This document shows positions 2,796-28,646 of a DNA stretch of 64,000 bases, piece after piece. Where the stretch lies: sequence record MN850603.1; one strand, given 5' to 3'. The notes beneath the pieces are model-generated. The model saw nothing but the letters and a program-made list of their open reading frames with translations. It did no database searches and was not told where the DNA came from. The stretch comes from Escherichia phage pinkbiff. Position numbers and translations under genes: made by a program. Every line of letters begins with the position of its first letter. The first letter of the stretch is position 1.

Positions 2796-2871
2796 TGGAG
2801 AATCCGAAGGGACTTGAACCCTTATAAACCTGTTTTGCAGACAGGCACATAGCCATTTCTGTCACGGATTC
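2796..2871 (-). tRNA. tRNA-Cys (GCA)
   Basis: Manual cloverleaf: T-loop TTCAAGT, 7-bp acceptor stem, encoded CCA, anticodon loop CTGCAAA. Confidence 0.75.
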
Positions 2872-2875
2872 AAAT

Positions 2876-2968
2876 TGGAGGAAGATACCAGACTTGAACT
2901 GGTACACCGATTTCTCAGCTACTGGCAGTTTAGCAAACTGCTCCCTTACCTTTTAGGGTTAATCTTCC
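2876..2968 (-). tRNA. tRNA-Ser (GCU), type II
   Basis: 93 nt, long variable arm, T-loop TTCAAGT, CCA encoded, anticodon loop TTGCTAA. Confidence 0.75.
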
Positions 2969-2969
2969 A

Positions 2970-3704
2970 TTATTTCTGCAATGCGTTCTTCATTTCTGGT
3001 GTTGCAATAGAATCGATTACACCAGTTTTACAAGCATCATCAAACCAGTCTGGTAAGATACCTGCTAAGAACCCATTGATATTCGTTTTAAGGTACTCTG
3101 CAATAAGGGCAGCTTCTTCTTCAATCATCTGCACAACTTCATCTGCATAAGCTGTAATCTTTGAAATACCTTCATTAATCTTACTAACAGCTTGGTTAGC
3201 TAAATCAGAAATAGTATCAAGACCTTTATCAATAGCATCCTGTAAGTCACTTAACACATCATTAACACCATCTAGTGTACTGTTAATCGTATCCATAGCT
3301 TTTTGACCATACTCTGTAGCAACACCCATAATACCACTAAACGGTGTACAGCCAACTTGCTCTCCTGCTGCACCCATAACATTGGAATAACCTTTTGCTA
3401 CCTGCATACGTGATGAGAACTCATCAATGGACTTTTGACCGTAATCTGTCAGCGTCTTAGTAGTTGATGTAGTGCTTGTCAGACTCGTTGTAAAGCCATT
3501 AAGCAGAACTGTTGTAAGTCCAGCAGCAACAAGCTTATCCTTTACTGTAGGGTCTGATACAGAGCTAATAGAGTTTACAAGTGATGTAGAGGCAGCTACG
3601 GTTCCACCGAGAACTGCTGCACCAGTAATAAGGGGATTAGAAAACCCTCTACCGGTTTTTAAGAGATTGAAAATCTCCTTACCTTGTTCTGTCATCTCTT
3701 TCAT
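2970..3704 (-). CDS. hypothetical protein (244 aa) embedded in tRNA cluster
   Basis: Long minus ORF; start set to ATG at 3704 because the track start (3767) would overlap the next tRNA. Thr/Ser-rich low-complexity stretches; no motif recognised. Confidence 0.55.
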   Translation of the reverse strand: MKEMTEQGKEIFNLLKTGRGFSNPLITGAAVLGGTVAASTSLVNSISSVSDPTVKDKLVAAGLTTVLLNGFTTSLTSTTSTTKTLTDYGQKSIDEFSSRMQVAKGYSNVMGAAGEQVGCTPFSGIMGVATEYGQKAMDTINSTLDGVNDVLSDLQDAIDKGLDTISDLANQAVSKINEGISKITAYADEVVQMIEEEAALIAEYLKTNINGFLAGILPDWFDDACKTGVIDSIATPEMKNALQK

Positions 3705-3720
3705 TAAGCACCTTTGAAAT

Positions 3721-3796
3721 TGGTAGTCCAGTGGGATTTGAACCCTATTCTCATGTTTTTCAGACACGCGCTTTAACCATATAAGCTACTTGGACT
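3721..3796 (-). tRNA. tRNA-Phe (GAA)
   Basis: T-loop TTCAAAT, CCA encoded, anticodon stem-loop CGTGT-CTGAAAA-ACATG; acceptor/T-stem pairing imperfect, ends approximate. Confidence 0.6.
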
Positions 3797-3802
3797 ATAA
3801 AT

Positions 3803-3878
3803 TGGGGTGACCTACGGGATTTGAACCCGTATAGACCATGTTCACAGCATGGGTCATTACCATTTATGATAAGGCCAC
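3803..3878 (-). tRNA. tRNA-His (GUG)
   Basis: T-loop TTCAAAT, 7-bp acceptor with one G-U, CCA encoded, anticodon loop CTGTGAA. Confidence 0.75.
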
Positions 3879-3909
3879 ATTTAAGGCCTCTCGTAAGAAC
3901 CCTTAGAAG

Positions 3910-3985
3910 TGGCAGCGGCATAAGGATTTGAACCTTAATAGGACAGCTTCAGAGACTGCTGCATTGCCAGTTATGCTATACCGCT
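3910..3985 (-). tRNA. tRNA-Gln (CUG)
   Basis: D-stem GCAT/ATGC, T-loop TTCAAAT, CCA encoded, anticodon loop CTCTGAA. Confidence 0.65.
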
Positions 3986-3990
3986 AAATT

Positions 3991-4069
3991 TGGTACTCCA
4001 TATCGGATTCGAACCGATACATAACACAGATTTTAAGTCTGGCCTCTCTGCCAATTGGAGTAATGGAGC
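3991..4069 (-). tRNA. tRNA with anticodon UAA (Leu-type anticodon; short variable arm)
   Basis: T-arm ATCGG-TTCGAAT-CCGAT, 7-bp acceptor, A73, CCA; anticodon loop CTTAAAA. 79 nt with no long variable arm, so isotype needs confirmation. Confidence 0.55.
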
Positions 4070-4071
4070 AT

Positions 4072-4147
4072 TGGCGGGGGATGTTGGAATTGAACCAACT
4101 TCTTCGATTTCAAAGACCGAGGTTTTAACCTTGTAAACTAATCCCCT
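4072..4147 (-). tRNA. tRNA-Gln (UUG)
   Basis: T-arm GTTGG-TTCAATT-CCAAC, D-arm GTTT/AAAC, anticodon loop CTTTGAA; 1:72 unpaired. Confidence 0.7.
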
Positions 4148-4155
4148 TTAAATCT

Positions 4156-4713
4156 TTACTTTCTCAGTGGATGAATAAAGAATGCCAACATAACTCTTTC
4201 CCTTGAGAATGCTCTTTCTTCTGGGACAACACTTTTTAGTTTCCATCCAACATAGATTCTCCAGTAAAACTGTTTACCAAAGACTTTAATTGACGGAATA
4301 AAAGCGAATAATCCCCAAGCATTGTTGTTCCACATTAGGAGATAACCTGTCTGATTATCTTCGGGGTCAGAACTTACGTTGATATTACCTTTCCACTTAG
4401 TAACATCTTTTACATCTCTTCCTAATACATGGTAAGAGAAGTTATAAGCTTTGTTTCTCCAGAGCCATCCGACTCTCTGCATGTAGACACCCAGCTTACC
4501 AATCTTTCTAATCTTAGCCCATCTTTTAACGTGACCCTCATCACCATCAATTGGGTTGTCATATGTCTCCATCCATCTGAACCCGAAAGGTAAGTGTCCT
4601 TTCTTCTCACTGTAGAATGGAACTACAAAAGGTGCTAAGATAACTGCTAAGATTGCTGCAAATGGCTCTAACAAAGCTAAGAAAATCCATGAAGCATACT
4701 TCAAATATCTCAT
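4156..4713 (-). CDS. hypothetical membrane protein (185 aa)
   Basis: ATG at 4713 with AAGAGG SD; hydrophobic N-terminal segment. Confidence 0.6.
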   Translation of the reverse strand: MRYLKYASWIFLALLEPFAAILAVILAPFVVPFYSEKKGHLPFGFRWMETYDNPIDGDEGHVKRWAKIRKIGKLGVYMQRVGWLWRNKAYNFSYHVLGRDVKDVTKWKGNINVSSDPEDNQTGYLLMWNNNAWGLFAFIPSIKVFGKQFYWRIYVGWKLKSVVPEERAFSRERVMLAFFIHPLRK

Positions 4714-4732
4714 CTAAATAGCCTCTTTAAAT

Positions 4733-4808
4733 TGGCGCAGGATAAGGGATTCGAACCCCTATTAACAGCTTCGTAGACTGTTGCTCTATCCATTTGAACT
4801 AATCCTGC
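4733..4808 (-). tRNA. tRNA-Arg (ACG)
   Basis: T-loop TTCGAAT, 7-bp acceptor, CCA encoded, anticodon stem-loop ACAGT-CTACGAA-GCTGT. Confidence 0.75.
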
Positions 4809-4922
4809 TTACCTACGAGAACACCATACAGTTTTTCACAAACTTTGTTTTTACGTCTGTTTAGGTATGACGCTCTAAACTTTTTTGCGATGGAGTTATT
4901 ACTCATGGTGCTCTCCTCAAAT

Positions 4923-5000
4923 TGGTGTTCCAAGACGGATTCGAACCGTCACTAATACAAGGTTTGAGCTTGCATCCTCTGCCAATTGGGATACTGGAAC
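4923..5000 (-). tRNA. tRNA with anticodon CAA (Leu-type anticodon; short variable arm)
   Basis: T-arm GACGG-TTCGAAT-CCGTC, acceptor 7 bp, A73, CCA; anticodon loop CTCAAAC; 78 nt. Confidence 0.55.
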
Positions 5001-5001
5001 A

Positions 5002-5076
5002 TGGTACTCACTAAAGGACTTGAACCTTTTTCTTCATCTTGTAAGGGTGATGTTTTACCATATAAACTAAGCGAGT
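5002..5076 (-). tRNA. tRNA-Val (UAC)
   Basis: T-loop TTCAAGT, acceptor 7 bp incl. G-U, CCA encoded, anticodon loop CTTACAA. Confidence 0.7.
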
Positions 5077-5171
5077 GTGAAAGAGGTCTGAAGTTGTGCC
5101 GCTAACTCAACTCCGTGGAATTTGTTACGGTCTTCAGTTGACACCAGCGGTCTTTCACTTGACCTCTGAAT
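5077..5171 (-). other. unassigned structured spacer (tRNA-like/ncRNA candidate)
   Basis: 95-nt gap between tRNA-Val and tRNA-Thr flanked by complementary ends (agaggtc ... gacctct); no canonical T-loop found. Confidence 0.25.
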
Positions 5172-5247
5172 TGGTGCTCCCACAAGGATTCGAACCCTGA
5201 TAAGTTGCTTACAAGGCAACCGTAATAGCCAATTATACGATAGGAGC
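5172..5247 (-). tRNA. tRNA-Thr (UGU)
   Basis: T-loop TTCGAAT, CCA encoded, perfect anticodon stem GTTGC/GCAAC with loop CTTGTAA. Confidence 0.78.
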
Positions 5248-5254
5248 ATTAATT

Positions 5255-5329
5255 TGGAGCATCCAGAGGGAATCGAACCCTCAACCTCAGTTTGGAAGAC
5301 TGTAATTTTCCCGTTTAAACTATGGATGC
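5255..5329 (-). tRNA. tRNA-Gly (UCC)
   Basis: T-arm GAGGG-TTCGATT-CCCTC, acceptor GCATCCA/TGGATGC, CCA encoded, anticodon loop CTTCCAA. Confidence 0.78.
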
Positions 5330-5335
5330 ACTAAT

Positions 5336-5411
5336 TGGTGGAGAAGCAGGGAATTGAACCCTGTACTTAAGTTTGCAAAACTTATGTTTTAACCATGTAA
5401 ACTACATCCCC
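5336..5411 (-). tRNA. tRNA-Ala (UGC)
   Basis: Acceptor stem with G3:U70 (Ala identity pair), A73, CCA; anticodon stem TAAGT/ACTTA with loop TTTGCAA. Confidence 0.8.
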
Positions 5412-5417
5412 AATGTC

Positions 5418-5493
5418 TGGTACAGGTGGAGGGAATTGAACCCGTCGTCTTACTGATTAAGAGTCAGCCGCATAACCATTTTGCTACACCTGC
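5418..5493 (-). tRNA. tRNA-Lys (CUU)
   Basis: T-loop TTCAATT, CCA encoded, anticodon loop CTCTTAA; T-stem has two mismatches. Confidence 0.65.
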
Positions 5494-5500
5494 ATTAATT

Positions 5501-5578
5501 TGGTGGGAGACAAGGGATTCGAACCCTCAAACATCTCGTTCTAAGCGAGATAGGTTTACCAATTACCATCAATCTCCC
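5501..5578 (-). tRNA. tRNA with anticodon UAG (Leu-type anticodon; short variable arm)
   Basis: T-arm GAGGG-TTCGAAT-CCCTT, acceptor 7 bp, A73, CCA; anticodon stem TCTCG/CGAGA with loop CTTAGAA; non-canonical D region. Confidence 0.55.
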
Positions 5579-5833
5579 ATTAAATCTTTTTAGAGAACTT
5601 CTAAGAACCTAAGCAACAAGGTTCCACAACAAGCTGTAATAACCTTAGAAGCCCTCTAAAAAGACCTAAAAAGGTCTTTGCATAGTCTTGTTTAATCCGG
5701 TGACTAGAACCTTTGGAGAGCTTGATATTATCTCTTCTCCGTGACACCTACTAGGTGTTTTATCAGTGTGTACGACAATACACGAGGGATACCAAAGCAA
5801 CATCCGAATGAAGCTTGGCTTTAAATCTTATTA

Positions 5834-5923
5834 GGCGGTAAGTAAAGGAGTCGAACCCTCACCGTATCTCTACAGTGGCAACTGTTTTCAAGACAGTTTG
5901 GCTACCATTAGCCGCTACCTACC
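5834..5923 (-). tRNA. tRNA-Ser (UGA), type II
   Basis: About 88 nt, long variable arm, T-loop TTCGACT, perfect anticodon stem ACTGT/ACAGT with loop CTTGAAA; 3' end reads GCC-T, so CCA not fully encoded. Confidence 0.7.
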
Positions 5924-5936
5924 CCTAATAAGACTT

Positions 5937-6019
5937 TGGCATGGGACGGAGGAGTTGAACCCCTTTGAAACGGTTTTGGAGGCCGTTGCTCATGCCTTAG
6001 AGTCTTAACATCGTCCCAT
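5937..6019 (-). tRNA. tRNA-Trp (CCA) candidate, atypical D region
   Basis: Perfect 7-bp acceptor ATGGGAC/GTCCCAT, T-loop TTCAACT, CCA encoded, anticodon loop CTCCAAA; 83 nt with an over-long D region. Confidence 0.5.
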
Positions 6020-6160
6020 ACTATAATTCGAAGCTTACCGTATTATCTCAACACTGTAAAGCTCCTTCTCAGGTTATTTACATGTTCTGGAAACATGAGA
6101 TACAGACCACCTCCCTACAGGAAGACCCGCTTAGGTCGTCTAAGTAATCTGCTAACTAAT

Positions 6161-6237
6161 TGGCACACCCTACAGGATTCGAACCTGTAACTCAATGATT
6201 AGAAGTCATTTGCTCTGTCCAGTTGAACTAAGGGTGC
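6161..6237 (-). tRNA. tRNA-Arg (UCU)
   Basis: D-arm GTTC/GAGC, anticodon stem AATGA/TCATT with loop CTTCTAA, T-loop TTCGAAT, CCA encoded. Confidence 0.78.
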
Positions 6238-6573
6238 ATTAATCTTTAAAGACTCTCTTAGAAAGCCCTTAAAGATGCCCACCTTATTAATCATACCGTG
6301 GGCTAGTACGCCAAATTCTTTGATGAGGGATTGGAAGACCTCACTGGTGTTTAGCCTATCAAGCTACTGCCAGAAAAACATTGTCGTTTGCATTTATTTT
6401 AAATTTGCAAAATAGACGCTACGCAACGAAAACTATTCAGAATATGTACAACAAATTTCCCCACATTGTGTTACGTCTAACACTCATGTATTGGTGTTTG
6501 AATTATACATATTATGAAGTATTTTAGTTACTATAAAGTAGTCACATCTCAATGTCAACAACTTTATTGAAAT

Positions 6574-6649
6574 TGGTACTGGTAGGTGGAATCGAACCAC
6601 CGATGTTCCCTTATCAGGGGAGTGTTATAACCTTCTTAACTATACCAGC
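6574..6649 (-). tRNA. tRNA-Ile (GAU)
   Basis: T-arm GGTGG-TTCGATT-CCACC, CCA encoded, anticodon loop CTGATAA. Confidence 0.72.
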
Positions 6650-6650
6650 T

Positions 6651-6727
6651 TGGAGGTTCAGATGGGAATCGAACCCACATTCATAGGGTTTATGAGACCC
6701 TTGCATTACCTTATCTGCGACTGAACC
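6651..6727 (-). tRNA. tRNA-Met (CAU), elongator-like
   Basis: Perfect acceptor GGTTCAG/CTGAACC, anticodon stem AGGGT/ACCCT with loop CTCATAA, T-loop TTCGATT, CCA encoded. Confidence 0.75.
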
Positions 6728-6731
6728 ATAT

Positions 6732-6807
6732 TGGTAGAAGTGGAGGGATTCGAACCCATCGCCTGTCAGATTAAAAGTCTGCCGCATCACCATTCTGCTA
6801 CACTTCC
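6732..6807 (-). tRNA. tRNA-Lys (UUU)
   Basis: Anticodon loop CTTTTAA, T-loop TTCGAAT, CCA encoded; T-stem imperfect. Confidence 0.68.
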
Positions 6808-6810
6808 ATT

Positions 6811-6956
6811 AAATTATCTTTGTAGATAAGCTACCCAGACTTGCTTAAGGTCTGTAGCGATGTGCCTTTTTGGGTTTAAATCTAGAATTTACCCTTTCAC
6901 CCTTTGTGGTCGCATACTCACAGGTAAGCTTAATAACTTATCTACAAAGATAATTA
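6811..6956. repeat. 18-bp perfect inverted repeat flanking about 108 nt inside the tRNA cluster
   Basis: attatctttgtagataag (6813-6830) and its reverse complement cttatctacaaagataat (6938-6955); no tRNA fold found between them. Confidence 0.6.
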
Positions 6957-7004
6957 CCAGACCGTTGTTTATCATCTTAAGTGCTACCATTACACCAACT
7001 CGAC

Positions 7005-7035
7005 CTCTGCCGAGTGAAGGAATCGAACCTTCTCC
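7005..7035 (-). other. isolated tRNA T-arm-like element (possible tRNA remnant)
   Basis: GAAGG-TTCGATT-CCTTC T-arm followed by a 7-nt acceptor-like strand, but no matching 5' half in the expected position. Confidence 0.3.
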
Positions 7036-7239
7036 TTTTCTTTACCGAGAAATAGATTGTTTAAGTTTTGCTGTAAACGGTCTTCTGTAAATTTGTTGAG
7101 CCAGACCAAGTTTTAAATTTTTTTCAAAATTGAATTGGCTTGAAAATATCATACGTACTTGCTGTATTTGGTCTTCTGCCCCTTTAAAGAATACTCGTAA
7201 GAACTCTTTAAGGGAGGGGCTAAATAGCCCTCTCAAAAT

Positions 7240-7317
7240 TGGCGGTTACGAAGGGATTTGAACCCTCATCATCTCCCGTGACAGGGGAGTATTTTAACCA
7301 AATTAAACTACATAACC
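7240..7317 (-). tRNA. tRNA-Asp (GUC)
   Basis: Perfect anticodon stem CTCCC/GGGAG with loop CTGTCAC, T-loop TTCAAAT, CCA encoded. Confidence 0.75.
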
Positions 7318-7322
7318 TTTAT

Positions 7323-7410
7323 TGGTGTGCCGTGTAGGAGTCGAACCTACCGAGTCTCAATGACAAGGGATTTACAGTCCCCACCGCTACCATCTACGGG
7401 ATAACGACAC
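7323..7410 (-). tRNA. tRNA-Tyr (GUA), type II
   Basis: 88 nt, long variable arm, anticodon stem GGGGA/TCCCT with loop CTGTAAA, T-loop TTCGACT, CCA encoded. Confidence 0.72.
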
Positions 7411-7478
7411 ATTTAATTTCTATTCAGGCTAAGGACTTGCACCTTACAAATCGGTGAGCAATCGCTTCTCTCCTAAAT
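7411..7478 (-). other. unassigned 68-nt spacer with variant T-arm-like hairpin
   Basis: AAGG-TGCAAGT-CCTT hairpin but no complete cloverleaf. Confidence 0.2.
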
Positions 7479-7479
7479 T

Positions 7480-7556
7480 TGGCGGTTAGTCAGGGATTCG
7501 AACCCTGTGCCATTCGCTTAACAGGCGACCGCACATACCTTATGTGCTTCCTAACC
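7480..7556 (-). tRNA. tRNA-Asn (GUU)
   Basis: D-arm GCAC/GTGC, T-arm CAGGG-TTCGAAT-CCCTG, CCA encoded, anticodon loop CTGTTAA. Confidence 0.72.
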
Positions 7557-7639
7557 ATGTTTAGTATTACCAGACCGTATCTTTCAATTTTTCCGCTAAA
7601 AATTTAATAAATATTGCTGTAAACGGTCTTCTGTAAATT

Positions 7640-7716
7640 TGGAGGCGGGTGCAGGAGTCGAACCTGCCGATACCATGCTAATGAGACATGTGAGACGCCC
7701 TTTCTCTATACCCGCA
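7640..7716 (-). tRNA. tRNA-Met (CAU), second copy (initiator or Ile2-type possible)
   Basis: T-loop TTCGACT, CCA encoded, anticodon loop CTCATTA, 1:72 unpaired (T:C). Confidence 0.6.
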
Positions 7717-7806
7717 ATTCTTAATGACCAGACCAAATATCTTCTTTGTCCGATTTCGTGTCAGATGAGTAGATTAAGTTTGCTGTAATTGGTCTTCTGT
7801 CAAAAC

Positions 7807-7884
7807 TGGCGTTCCAGAAGGGATTTGAACCCTCAAATATCCACTTTGAAAGAGTGGTGACTTTACCATTTTGTCTACTGGAAC
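7807..7884 (-). tRNA. tRNA-Glu (UUC)
   Basis: Perfect acceptor GTTCCAG/CTGGAAC, anticodon stem CCACT/AGTGG with loop CTTTCAA, T-loop TTCAAAT, CCA encoded. Confidence 0.75.
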
Positions 7885-7891
7885 ATTAATT

Positions 7892-7968
7892 TGGTCTCTG
7901 TTGGAGGACTTGAACCTCCGGCCTTACCGCCCCAAACGGAACGCTCTACCAAGCTGAGCTAAACAGAG
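7892..7968 (-). tRNA. tRNA-Pro (UGG)
   Basis: Canonical D-arm GCTC-AGCTTGGTA-GAGC, T-arm GGAGG-TTCAAGT-CCTCC, CCA encoded, anticodon loop TTTGGGG. Confidence 0.75.
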
Positions 7969-24613: not shown

Positions 24614-24685
24614 TTTTGAATCTCCTAGTTTAAGGGTTTTTATTTAGTGGGGAAGTCATTTCCTCCCCGTTGATGCAAATACTAG
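24614..24685 (-). repeat. conserved intergenic cassette, variant A
   Basis: GGGGAAGTCATTTCCTCCCC hairpin plus conserved TIR. Confidence 0.8.
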
Positions 24686-24870
24686 ATAACCCCGTTCGAA
24701 TAGTCAAGAAAAATTTTAAAAATATTTTTGGCAAAATTGTAATGAAACGGGTGCGCGCGACTACCACAAAACAGAGCTACAATCAAGAATTATTTTTCAA
24801 TCCGCTACAAATTTTTCTGTTGACTTTTCTTTTCGGATGTGGTAGCCTTGTGAGAAATGGCGACATCCCT

Positions 24871-25070
24871 ACCTGCACCCACCTACCTGCACAATTCTAA
24901 AATGATTTTTCTTGCCCGACCTGATTTTTCTCTGCACGTTTTGAAAATGAAAAAGCTCTTTGGAGATTACCTGCACAGTTTGAAAATGAATTTTCTCTTT
25001 GGAGTTCAAAATTCTCTCTACAGATTTCTCTATAGAAATATACCTGCACAATTCTGAAATGAAAAAGCCC
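24871..25070. repeat. array of 4-5 direct repeats, consensus CCTGCACARTTYTRAAATGAAWWAG
   Basis: Copies at about 24886, 24932, 24969 and 25042 (partial at 24871) in a 480-bp ORF-free interval. Confidence 0.7.
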
Positions 25071-25135
25071 TCCTTACCTGAAAAATTTACCAGATAAGAA
25101 AGGCTTAGTCTATTGTGAGTATTTTACAGAGTTTC

Positions 25136-25921
25136 TTAGTTCTTTGCGTCTAAGAAGGTAAGCTCTGGTGAAGAGAAGATTAACTCGATATCCTCATCAG
25201 TTCTCGCATAGATATAAGTATCTGCATCACTGCCAAATGTTACTGCAATCCTGTGATTGCTCTTCGACAGGTGGGTAACTAGAGCGTTACTTAGAGACAT
25301 CTTTTCAACCGGAGGGTTACTTTGATGTATCTTACCTTTTCTTCGTCTGAAAAGGGTAACTGCATTATCCGTGAACACTGCTACACCTGCAAAGTATTCT
25401 GGTTCACAGTAGTTCTTCCAACCTGAGAGTAACTTGTGGTACATCTCTCCTTCATAGACATACAGATAAACATCTACACTCTTCATGACCTGATTGATGA
25501 TAACTGTGACAGCTTGAGGGTCGAGTCCACCGATACCTGCACCAATCATAGGTAGACCGACTTTCTTCAACTGGTTAACTTCACAGTATCTGTTAAGCTG
25601 TTTCAAAGATGACTCTAAAGCACTGTATCGTGCATCTTTACCAGTCTTAAGCTGAGTGTAAAGGTTAGCTATACGGCCTTGTTTTAAACGTGCTACAGAG
25701 GAATTACCCAGTAAATTTTCACAGGGTTTGTGTCCTATACCACCTGCATATAGATAAACTTCTGTATCGGTCTCATATGCTTTTGGGTAAAGTTTAGAAA
25801 TCTTGTCAGCGATACCTGCACCCATTAAATTCATACAGTTGCAACCGTGACCGATGATGTCAAACTTACCTTTATCAAATGCGGAAAAGATATCACCGTT
25901 GATAATTTTTACAATACCCAT
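25136..25921 (-). CDS. macro-domain protein (ADP-ribose binding/processing), 261 aa
   Basis: N-terminus G-D-I-F ... D-I-I-G-H-G-C-N-C-M-N-L-M-G-A-G-I-A matches the macro-domain glycine-rich ADP-ribose pocket; extra C-terminal domain of about 100 aa. Confidence 0.7.
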   Translation of the reverse strand: MGIVKIINGDIFSAFDKGKFDIIGHGCNCMNLMGAGIADKISKLYPKAYETDTEVYLYAGGIGHKPCENLLGNSSVARLKQGRIANLYTQLKTGKDARYSALESSLKQLNRYCEVNQLKKVGLPMIGAGIGGLDPQAVTVIINQVMKSVDVYLYVYEGEMYHKLLSGWKNYCEPEYFAGVAVFTDNAVTLFRRRKGKIHQSNPPVEKMSLSNALVTHLSKSNHRIAVTFGSDADTYIYARTDEDIELIFSSPELTFLDAKN

Positions 25922-25922
25922 A

Positions 25923-26123
25923 CTAATAATGCTCCCAACGTTGCATGTCTTCGGATGGTTTTACACGGTTACCCTCATGGTCTACATAACCTGCACCACA
26001 ACCTTCACAGATAACTGGCATAGCTGAACCAGCTTCAAACTCTTCTTTGGTGAAGAGACCTTTCAAGTCCCCTGTATCAACACCAAAATGTTCTATTGCA
26101 CACTTCTTGCAGAAATCAGCCAT
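25923..26123 (-). CDS. small zinc-ribbon-like protein (66 aa)
   Basis: ATG 26123 with AAGAGG SD; CxxC ... CxxC pattern. Confidence 0.5.
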   Translation of the reverse strand: MADFCKKCAIEHFGVDTGDLKGLFTKEEFEAGSAMPVICEGCGAGYVDHEGNRVKPSEDMQRWEHY

Positions 26124-26343
26124 GAATAATTGCCTCTTGAATGATGATACCTTTACCACAACGGCTTTTAAAGTCTTCCAATGGTTGGGAGATGAAGCCA
26201 CGCAAGCAATCACTAAATACTAAGTTTTTCCTGTAGGCTATCACATCGTTTGCTGTAAACGGGATGACTTCATTTCTTCCAATGAATACTGCTGACCGGA
26301 TGAGTTTCCGTGTCTTTTTATCTCTGGCTAGAATTACTCTCAT
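26116..26343 (-). CDS. hypothetical protein (75 aa)
   Basis: ATG 26343; overlaps the downstream start by 8 nt. Confidence 0.5.
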   Translation of the reverse strand: MRVILARDKKTRKLIRSAVFIGRNEVIPFTANDVIAYRKNLVFSDCLRGFISQPLEDFKSRCGKGIIIQEAIIHG

Positions 26344-26644
26344 AATTTACCTTCTCAGTTAGCTCATATAAATCAACATGCTCAATACTATCAATGTTGA
26401 TATCAATCTTTTTGAAGCGTTCTATCACTTCGTTGTCAGTCATCCATATCAGACACCAATGATTCTGAATGGATTCTTCAAGAAGGTCAACACAATCTTT
26501 AAAAGTTTTTGTATCACTTCTTGTGCCTACTACTGCGATTGTTCCATATAGCCACTTACCATTGCCATAAGTTACTTGTGCTACGCCAACTTCTTTATCT
26601 TTCTCGTAGTAAACGGCTACAAAGTCTCTTCCATTAATCTGCAT
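26318..26644 (-). CDS. hypothetical protein (108 aa)
   Basis: ATG 26644. Confidence 0.5.
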   Translation of the reverse strand: MQINGRDFVAVYYEKDKEVGVAQVTYGNGKWLYGTIAVVGTRSDTKTFKDCVDLLEESIQNHWCLIWMTDNEVIERFKKIDINIDSIEHVDLYELTEKVNYESNSSQR

Positions 26645-27950: not shown

Positions 27951-28646
27951 TCAATGTTTAACTAACATGGTTTTGATGTGTGGAAGGATTCTATTCACTT
28001 TCTGCACATTCTTCTCTGTATCTTCTATAAAACATACTATATTAAAGTAAGGCAGAATGCAAGACTGAATCATCCTCACTTTCAAACTTTCTGCACTTAT
28101 AGAGTTAGTTCCAAAACCACGCATAAAAAGCATATAATCATGCTCTGTGTTATGCCTTAAAAACATCTCAGTAGGTATTCTCTGAGATTCGCCTCTCGCT
28201 GTCAAGAGTCCAACGGCAGCATGATTAGCAATTGCATCAATGATATTGAAAACATACGTTGGTTTTGCTCTTACAGAGTCAAGAAGATTAGTGTACTGTG
28301 AAAATGAACCATCAGTCAATTCCGTTGAACAATCTTCGTGATTAAAATTTGTAAGAACTCCATCAATATCTGCTAAGATAAGATTACCTTTCTCTACAAG
28401 GTCTTTGTTGACTATGACTAAACTATCACGTTTTACACCTATGGATTGTCCAGTCTCTTTGTCCACAACGTTCACAATTGGTTCTGATGTGTGGAACTCT
28501 TCAAGTGAACATACAACTTCTCTTGCGGTGTCTTCAAAATCCCTGCACTGTTCTGGAGTCCATACACAGGAATCAAGACCTAACTCATGAGGGTGTAAGT
28601 CATAAGCATGGCACAATACTTCATCAAACTTTCTTAATTTTTTCAT
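27951..28646 (-). CDS. hypothetical protein with HAD-like motif (231 aa)
   Basis: Internal L-I-L-A-D-I-D-G-V-L-T resembles HAD phosphatase motif I, and G-L-L-T-A-R motif II; assignment tentative. Confidence 0.45.
   Translation of the reverse strand: MKKLRKFDEVLCHAYDLHPHELGLDSCVWTPEQCRDFEDTAREVVCSLEEFHTSEPIVNVVDKETGQSIGVKRDSLVIVNKDLVEKGNLILADIDGVLTNFNHEDCSTELTDGSFSQYTNLLDSVRAKPTYVFNIIDAIANHAAVGLLTARGESQRIPTEMFLRHNTEHDYMLFMRGFGTNSISAESLKVRMIQSCILPYFNIVCFIEDTEKNVQKVNRILPHIKTMLVKH

Follow-up and report, generated by a model that had tools for sequence, protein, structure and literature searches.

A Gln-type macro domain joined to a fast-evolving orphan domain in Felix O1-like phages: a candidate counter-defence enzyme

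Escherichia phage pinkbiff (sequence record MN850603.1) encodes a macro domain protein of 261 residues whose C-terminal part is an orphan domain that evolves 2-3 times faster than the macro domain. We examined this gene within a stretch of 64,000 nucleotides (nt), hereafter called the window, whose source genome is of the Felix O1-like myovirus type (genus Felixounavirus). The macro domain has an intact ADP-ribose (ADPR) pocket and keeps the catalytic Asn. By sequence comparison, the protein is a Poa1p-like, Gln-type macro enzyme of the phage Tk.4/Adpp family. We consider it probable that the protein is a counter-defence hydrolase of some kind acting at C1'' of ADPR, and we tentatively favor a role in feeding ADPR to NARP1, a pathway encoded in the same genome that rebuilds nicotinamide adenine dinucleotide (NAD+).

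Full-length copies of the gene are present in ~200 Felixounavirus records, where the product is variously annotated as a “phosphatase,” “macro domain protein,” “O-acetyl-ADP-ribose deacetylase,” or “hypothetical protein.” Hence neither the macro domain itself nor its family or annotation is a novelty. What is new is the two-domain architecture with its orphan, fast-evolving tail, the position of the macro gene unlinked to the prototype NARP1, and a two-allele polymorphism. The gene and its parts are as follows, numbered on the window.

25136..25921, minus strand: whole macro gene, 261 codons plus stop, ATG start (open reading frame list)
25454..25921, minus strand: macro domain, residues 1-156, Poa1p-like or Tk.4-Adpp type (Pfam, AlphaFold2 with Foldseek, and alignment)
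25838..25840, minus strand: codon for N28 in the HGCNC motif, equivalent to the catalytic Asn of PhiKZ AdfM (N23) and Taq DarG (N22) (MAFFT alignment)
25652..25654, minus strand: codon for Q90 in the invariant NLYTQ motif, at the position of the catalytic Lys of DarG (K80), PhiKZ AdfM (K78), and TARG1 (K84) (alignments)
25139..25453, minus strand: C-terminal region, residues 157-261, a linker helix and then a beta domain of six strands and one helix; orphan

The macro domain retains its ADP-ribose pocket

Three lines of evidence identify the N-terminal domain. The Pfam Macro profile (PF01661) matches residues 25-141 over profile positions 2-117 of 118, scoring 32.6 bits where the cutoff is 22 (E 8.4e-8). 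An AlphaFold2 model that draws on 19 homologues has a mean predicted local distance difference test (pLDDT) score of 86.7 and a predicted template modeling (TM) score of 0.87, and residues 1-156 of this model adopt the three-layer alpha/beta/alpha macro fold. When these residues are compared with the Protein Data Bank (PDB) by Foldseek, the first match is human TARG1 (E 9e-10; TM-score 0.82, target-normalized), followed by DarG and by alphavirus and coronavirus macro domains. There are 236 matches at E <= 0.001, and among the matches listed all 50 are macro domains.

The ligand loops point the same way. The motif GDIF occupies residues 9-12, GHGCNCMNLMGAGIA occupies residues 24-38, and a second glycine-rich loop, PMIGAGIGGLD, spans residues 124-134. 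D10, N28, the MGAGIA loop (residues 33-38), and IGAGIGGLD (residues 126-134) align with the ligand loops of TARG1 and DarG. Among 19 two-domain homologues, D10, H25, N28, the MGAGIA loop, NLYTQ, and PxIGAGIGGLD are invariant, and the macro domain has a ratio of nonsynonymous to synonymous substitution rates (dN/dS) of 0.07 (19 distinct close sequences).

A preliminary description of this DNA had read a macro domain from the first two of these motifs and had placed a gene at 25136-25921, with the strand omitted. Both readings hold, and the open reading frame lies on the minus strand. The same description named loss of catalytic or binding residues on alignment as a ground for dismissal. This objection does not arise, because no binding residue is lost and the Gln-type active site is shared by a proven enzyme; N28 is likewise kept.

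A Gln-type member of PHROG 335

The viral protein family PHROG 335, annotated as “phosphatase,” spans the full length of the macro protein (residues 1-260, E 8.8e-112). The same family also holds a T4 Tk.4-like protein (9.7e-72) and the Adpp protein of phage Chester (8.5e-51), whose operon has the order Prs-like, macro, and NAMPT-like. Motifs of the Tk.4/Adpp family are present in the macro protein, namely HxCNC and N-x-Y/H-x-Q, with Gln replacing the Lys of DarG.

Two members of this family have been characterized. The T4 gene tk.4, which lies between vs and tk.3 in the T4 reference record (NP_049723), was the sole significant hit in a HIDEN-SEQ screen for growth on DarTG2; a clean knockout sensitizes T4, and the product was named AdfM (bioRxiv 10.1101/2025.11.20.689424). 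Purified Adpp from Vibrio phage Gary turns ADPR-1''-phosphate into ADPR, and it is required for a three-gene operon to overcome aRES, a RES-domain NAD+ phosphorylase (bioRxiv 10.64898/2026.01.28.702374). The extended pathway, comprising Adps, Adpp, and Namat, is termed NARP1-AP, and such a macro gene accompanies 15% of NARP1 operons (bioRxiv 10.64898/2026.01.28.702374). Two different counter-defence functions have thus been published within PHROG 335, the family to which both Tk.4 and Gary Adpp belong. The name AdfM itself covers two macro subfamilies: gp104 of PhiKZ (locus L004, 22518-23006) is of DarG type with Lys, and T4 Tk.4 (locus L088, 3426-3890) is Poa1p-like with Gln.

T4 Tk.4 (NP_049723) aligns with the whole macro domain at 35% identity and 79 bits. 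In pairwise comparisons, the Felix O1 protein matches a Tk.4-like protein at 80 bits (35% identity), the NARP1-associated protein of JG004 at 74 bits (30%), and Gary Adpp at 52 bits (27%); its identity to NARP1-associated macro proteins as a group is 27-30% (52-74 bits). The Tk.4-like protein matches Gary Adpp at 85 bits (39%), and Tk.4 and Gary Adpp overall share 35-39% identity. In a neighbor-joining tree, Tk.4 and Gary Adpp share one clade, and the two-domain proteins form its sister clade. Phylogeny therefore cannot separate the two functions, and we rejected it as an arbiter between Adpp and AdfM. The residue states HGCNC/HQCNC and YTQ/YGQ were also rejected as discriminators, since NARP1-adjacent Acinetobacter and Aeromonas proteins have the states seen in T4 and Felix O1.

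The Felix O1 protein shares with T4 Tk.4 the HGCNC, NLYTQ, and PxIGxGIxxG motifs, besides family membership and the Gln at the DarG Lys position; that Tk.4 is an early, non-essential phage gene is a further likeness. It differs in that Tk.4 is a single domain of 155 residues from a phage that lacks NARP1, and in that 10 residues are inserted in the Felix O1 protein at residues ~55-70, besides its C-terminal domain of ~100 residues. Gary Adpp (KNV71_gp137) shares the family and the Gln-type active site, and it too comes from a genome with Adps and Namat and from a phage whose host range overlaps aRES-carrying bacteria. However, Gary Adpp is a single domain of 158 residues whose gene lies between Adps and Namat. 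Among cellular proteins, yeast Poa1p (PDB 6LFQ) and Bacteroides BT1257 (PDB 2AFC and 2FG1) have the HxCN(C/D) motif and the glycine loops, and the DarG/TARG1 Lys is not conserved in them (it is Gln in BT1257). Both are single-domain proteins with only very weak similarity to the Felix O1 protein (E 0.009-0.14). Another architecture within the macro family is seen in a metagenomic protein of 339 residues (P0024), in which a macro domain relative is fused to Pfam PF20274.

Distinction from DarG- and TARG1-type enzymes

The macro protein is not of the DarG/TARG1 type, because the position of the catalytic Lys holds Gln. In three independent alignments, this Lys (K80 of DarG, K78 of PhiKZ AdfM, and K84 of TARG1) aligns with the invariant Q90. 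The residue is also Gln in T4 Tk.4, Gary Adpp, BT1257, and every NARP1-associated macro protein examined. TARG1 (also OARD1; PDB 4J5R) is the best structural match and has an identical MGAGIA phosphate-binding loop as well as the same fold, but its other catalytic residue, D125, aligns with G131.

The macro domains of DarG (PDB 5M31, 5M3E, and 5M3I) and PhiKZ AdfM resemble that of the Felix O1 protein in fold (TM-score ~0.8), in the catalytic Asn, and in a second loop of the form GxGxGGLD, and DarG likewise consists of an N-terminal macro domain followed by a C-terminal domain. In contrast, no darT partner is present here, and the C-terminal domain has no relationship to the part of DarG that binds DarT. 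PhiKZ gp104, for which DNA de-ADP-ribosylation has been shown biochemically (Cell Rep 2026, PMC13309987), matches DarG at E 1e-24 and has an FPTK motif with the catalytic Lys. It served as the positive control in a scan with two curated DarG models, NCBIfam NF048014 (cutoff 250 bits) and the DarG model of PADLOC, which gave these scores.

PhiKZ gp104: NCBIfam DarG 137.8 bits, PADLOC DarG 132.9 bits
Macro protein (Felix O1): NCBIfam DarG 48.3 bits, PADLOC DarG 47.5 bits
Gary Adpp: NCBIfam DarG 35 bits, PADLOC DarG 45 bits
Tk.4-like protein: NCBIfam DarG 28 bits, PADLOC DarG 27.5 bits

On both models the macro protein thus falls short of a DarG-type score. The two profile hidden Markov models (HMMs), of 338 and 329 positions, align only to its macro part (profile positions 4-151 and 17-146), with nothing matched at residues 160-261. 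As to the macro subfamily, which the preliminary description had left to an HMM search, assignment to PF01661 and PHROG 335 stands and assignment to the DarG type does not, given 48.3 bits against a cutoff of 250 and Q90 in place of Lys.

An orphan C-terminal domain under purifying selection

That the protein has an extra C-terminal domain, as originally proposed, is borne out by several measures. The domain is conserved in homologues as low as 33% identity, is modeled with a pLDDT of 79 when folded alone, and has a dN/dS of 0.19 in the same set of close sequences, indicative of purifying selection. Its core comprises residues ~175-250 (nt 25172-25399). Compared with the macro domain, the mean pairwise identity is lower (30% vs. 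58%) and invariant positions are fewer (one Pro and one Gly vs. 38).

Searches for relatives of this domain returned no Pfam family and no match to a PDB or viral fold. Among predicted viral structures, it matches only its own orthologue in phage SUSP2. A profile of the domain searched against 1.84 billion representative proteins recovered the same macro fusion and, in addition, only spurious beta-propeller and repeat proteins, which we rejected as homologues on the grounds that they match through a generic hairpin pattern. Among 79 related viral loci, the domain occurs only in the macro fusion.

The domain is unlikely to be an enzyme because it has no conserved polar residues. We infer a fast-evolving module whose binding to a partner or substrate would direct the enzyme there. 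Nucleic acid binding was considered from charge and rejected, because homologues differ in the net charge of this domain, from -5 to +4, and share no consistently basic character. In Erwinia phage vEam_PM_6 (Kolesnikvirus; locus L008, 13998-14780), a syntenic “phosphatase” of 260 residues has a macro domain that is 40% identical. The C-terminal ~100 residues of this Kolesnikvirus protein are of the same length as the Felix O1 domain, with no detectable homology between the two; the tail was either replaced or has diverged past recognition.

Two alleles on one genomic backbone

The macro gene lies within an island of sequence divergence, which was delineated by sliding identity against the window for two IMG/VR genomes (L036 and L037) and a control (L012).

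24650..26350, no strand assigned: divergent island containing the macro gene, parts of two small upstream open reading frames, and the downstream repeat spacer (sliding identity)

Both genomes are 95-100% identical to the window on either flank and only ~50-65% identical in nucleotide sequence within the island, whereas the control remains at 94-100% identity throughout the macro gene. The replacement protein is 41% identical overall, with 53% identity in the macro domain and 18% in the C-terminal domain. This alternative allele is found in 13 cultured Felixounavirus records, and no records have between 60% and 95% identity. Phages finno and BPS17L1 are examples of its carriers. This lack of intermediates indicates two discrete allele classes on one backbone. 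Such a two-allele pattern is common among genes in host-virus conflict.

A related observation concerns three records of one phage name. VpaE1_ev035 (LR699048) carries the alternative allele (95.7% identity to protein P0009), and the parental VpaE1 (KM657822) and VpaE1_ev78 (LR597663) carry the main allele. The name VpaE1_ev035 suggests an evolved derivative, and the comparison suggests that recombination can swap the island within a short time.

NARP1 and its relation to the macro gene

The window also encodes the two NARP1 enzymes, as expected from the NAMPT/Prs pair previously described in this genome.

35700..36596, minus strand: Adps (annotated Prs-like), first NARP1 enzyme (Pfam Pribosyltran and Pribosyl_synth; PHROG 619)
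33404..35185, minus strand: Namat (annotated NAMPT-like), second NARP1 enzyme (Pfam NAPRTase and NAMPT_N; PHROG 448)

Genes 79-80 of the Felixounavirus Bas63 encode Adps and Namat and are the prototype of NARP1, in which NAD+ is rebuilt from ADPR and nicotinamide; NARP1 in Bas63 has been independently confirmed by PhageMaP. Here, an HNH homing endonuclease gene (35200-35691, minus strand; HNH_3 with an AP2-like domain) interrupts the NARP1 operon between Adps and Namat, and in most related IMG/VR loci the gap between the two genes is only ~50 nt.

Adps and Namat share the genome with the macro gene, as in NARP1-AP. However, in the published definition of that pathway the macro gene lies inside the NARP1 operon or within two genes of it, and the Felix O1 gene does not. 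It starts 7.5 kilobases (kb) and ~14 genes downstream of Namat, and genes for rIIA, rIIB, lysin, a Pnkp-like protein, and spanin lie between. Phage records with an Adps homologue at 60% identity or more number 252, compared with 256 that have the macro protein in full length. The synteny of NARP1, rIIA/B, Pnkp, and the macro gene is kept in metagenomic relatives (33-36% identity) and in Erwinia Kolesnikvirus (relatives at 33-40%).

Proposed function and alternatives

The preliminary description proposed that the protein could be a counter-defence enzyme that removes or processes ADPR. Homology favors this view, as the PHROG 335 members Tk.4 and Gary Adpp act against DarTG2 and on ADPR-1''-phosphate, respectively. 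For the more specific proposal, we infer a substrate, a link to NARP1, and a role for the C-terminal domain.

One possibility, which we favor while giving it somewhat less than even chances, is that the protein has an Adpp-like role in trans, countering aRES by converting ADPR-1''-phosphate into ADPR for NARP1. A host RES-type NAD+ phosphorylase (aRES) would turn NAD+ into nicotinamide and ADPR-1''-phosphate, and the macro domain would remove the phosphate to yield ADPR, from which Adps and Namat of the phage, whose genes lie 7.5 kb upstream, would restore NAD+. The macro domain could also recycle phosphorylated by-products of the decay of ADPR-pyrophosphate. We favor this role because the only biochemical activity shown for the Gln-type family and for Poa1p is that of an ADPR-1''-phosphate phosphatase, because the family has been repeatedly recruited to NARP1 in unrelated phages, and because NARP1 alone is defenceless against aRES, which is present in enterobacterial hosts. 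The aRES systems studied were cloned from E. coli, Klebsiella, and Enterobacter, and these bacteria are hosts of Felix O1-like phages or near relatives of such hosts.

Several observations weigh against an Adpp-like role. The macro gene is distant from NARP1 and lies behind its own terminator-like site, unlike the operonic arrangement of NARP1-AP. NARP1 and the macro gene co-occur by shared descent within one subfamily, so their joint presence is not independent evidence of a link. Table S1 of the aRES paper is without any Felix O1-like, Salmonella, or Escherichia phage, and its text makes no mention of Bas63 or Felix; the paper counted macro genes only within two genes of NARP1. The protein scores somewhat higher with Tk.4 (80 bits) than with Gary Adpp (52 bits), though the NARP1-associated JG004 protein reaches 74 bits. 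Its second loop, GAGIGGLD, and its DarG score of 48 bits are the most DarG-like within the family. A small-molecule phosphatase requires no extra domain, and the fast-evolving appendage and allele replacement suggest a macromolecular partner in an arms race, which is not obviously expected of a phosphatase. A literature search found no experiment on the macro protein or on any Felix O1-like orthologue. Regarding fitness of the Bas63 orthologue, which would be roughly gene 94, the PhageMaP study does not mention it and had neither DarTG nor aRES in its defence panel, and HIDEN-SEQ did not include a Felixounavirus.

Many of these points speak for a role against DarTG2, which we judge rather unlikely, though nearly as likely as the Adpp-like role. 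By this account, replication is protected from DarTG2 because the macro domain clears the ADP-ribose that DarT2 attaches to thymidines of single-stranded phage DNA. The C-terminal domain would assist as a binder of DNA, of the replisome, or of the toxin DarT2. Tk.4, at 35% identity, is among the closest characterized homologues and has both the HIDEN-SEQ match and the knockout to its credit (bioRxiv 10.1101/2025.11.20.689424). The DarG score of the Felix O1 protein is the highest in the family, and its second loop is closer to that of DarG (GxGNGGLD) than to those of Tk.4 or Adpp, and it has GGLD where the comparison with Tk.4 shows GKGNW/GGDW. Moreover, the order of macro and C-terminal domains mirrors DarG, the gene is unlinked to NARP1, and the fast C terminus and allele replacement fit an arms race with a protein toxin. 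Yet Gln replaces the Lys without which DarG and PhiKZ AdfM do not function, and the DarG score is 48 bits when PhiKZ AdfM reaches 138 and the cutoff is 250. Support from Tk.4 is genetic only, DNA de-ADP-ribosylation has not been reported for any Gln-type member, and the C-terminal domain is unlike that of DarG and not consistently basic. The anti-DarTG2 and Adpp-like roles are compatible, since each reaction removes a substituent from C1'' of the ribose. Enzymes of the Tk.4/Adpp family would take off such substituents in general, and the same active site may thus also remove DarT2-type ADP-ribose from thymidine in DNA, as has been inferred for T4 Tk.4.

Other explanations are less probable. 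The substrate could be another C1''-linked form of ADP-ribose, such as the His-ADP-ribose (His-ADPR) of type II Thoeris, RNA or protein that other host toxins have ADP-ribosylated, or O-acetyl-ADP-ribose, with the ADPR product again feeding NARP1. We regard this as improbable. The macro domains of ThsA bind His-ADPR, and NARP1 recruits different feeders, namely Adpp and the RyDEP glycosidase, which acts on cyclic ADP-ribose (cADPR) signals. TARG1, the best structural match, has several substrates. Against these points, the literature has no phage macrodomain that cleaves His-ADPR or cADPR signals. The O-acetyl-ADP-ribose deacetylase label in some GenBank records is an automatic transfer, and the two characterized family members point elsewhere. 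About as improbable is a two-pronged “orphan antitoxin” whose origin would be independent of DarG. Its macro domain would erase what a host NAD+-consuming defence enzyme makes (ADPR-1''-phosphate in the case of aRES, ADP-ribosyl-thymidine in that of DarT2, or both), and its tail would bind that host enzyme and block it directly; the two alleles would then differ in specificity, each suited to another variant of the host enzyme.

The protein might instead bind ADPR without catalysis, either as a sponge for ADPR-type molecules or as a reader of an ADP-ribosylated target with the C-terminal domain as its effector, but this is quite unlikely. It would account for the missing Lys and Asp of DarG/TARG1, and one record labels the alternative allele a “high-affinity ADP-ribose binding module.” However, the Gln-type family contains the demonstrably active Gary Adpp, N28 and H25 are invariant, and a domain with one Pro and one Gly as its only invariant residues is a poor candidate for an effector enzyme. 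We give least credence to housekeeping in RNA repair, in which the protein would act like Poa1p and, with the Pnkp-like gene, dispose of ADPR-1''-phosphate or of its cyclic form (Appr>p) released by a 2'-phosphotransferase during tRNA repair. Homology to Poa1p is in its favor, as is the Pnkp-like (polynucleotide kinase/phosphatase-like) gene at 27951-28646, which lies 2 kb upstream and keeps its synteny in distant relatives. But no Tpt1/KptA-type phosphotransferase or RNA ligase was seen beside the macro gene, T4-type repair makes no 2'-phosphate junctions, and allele replacement is atypical of housekeeping genes.

Implications for phage counter-defence

Felix O1-like phages are widely used in the typing, biocontrol, and therapy of Salmonella and E. 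coli, and Bas63 served as the model for the discovery of NARP1. If the macro protein has Adpp activity in trans, then the prototype NARP1 phage already has the extended pathway. The published value of 15% for NARP1 phages with the phosphatase would then be an underestimate, and searches based on adjacency would overlook accessory counter-defence genes. More broadly, PHROG 335 has been assigned an anti-DarTG2 function in T4 and an ADPR-1''-phosphate phosphatase function in Vibrio phages, and the name AdfM spans two unrelated macro subfamilies. The Felix O1 protein, with its two domains and two natural alleles, is convenient for addressing bifunctionality and specificity in PHROG 335 enzymes.

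Genomic neighborhood and minor observations

The 4-kb region at the macro gene is 92-95% identical in nucleotide sequence to many Salmonella, Escherichia, and Shigella phages, and gp13 of FO1a is 98.5% identical to the macro protein. The gene is the final cistron in a packed series of small minus-strand genes, with its start codon adjoining the stop of the open reading frame upstream. That frame (25923-26126, minus strand) is small and Cys-rich, with a CxxC...CxxC pattern that might form a zinc ribbon, and it is translationally abutted to the start of the macro gene. It is kept in close relatives only, and part of it lies inside the divergent island. As it is absent outside close relatives, we rejected it as a conserved partner of the macro protein.

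Downstream of the macro gene is a terminator-like site.

25065..25106, minus strand: terminator-like hairpin then a T-run, 30 nt past the stop codon (consensus scan, pattern match only)

The macro gene is followed by a gene-free spacer of ~520 nt. Direct repeats of ~30-35 nt with a consensus of about TACCTGCACAATTCTGAAAATGA... occur in this spacer at 24884-25077, within the divergent island, and could be a set of promoters or terminators. An Rfam search of the window matched only the tRNA cluster, with no match in the spacer or its repeats. This cluster (2796-7968, minus strand) has 26 tRNA genes by ARAGORN, 24 of which are also over the Rfam threshold, as is typical for Felix O1-like phages.

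A macro gene of the Felix O1 type also appears in the records of Staphylococcus phage SA1 (GU169904) and Campylobacter phage A126 (MG065668), at 95% and 86% nucleotide identity, respectively. These records are probably mixed or misassigned assemblies rather than true Staphylococcus or Campylobacter phage genes.

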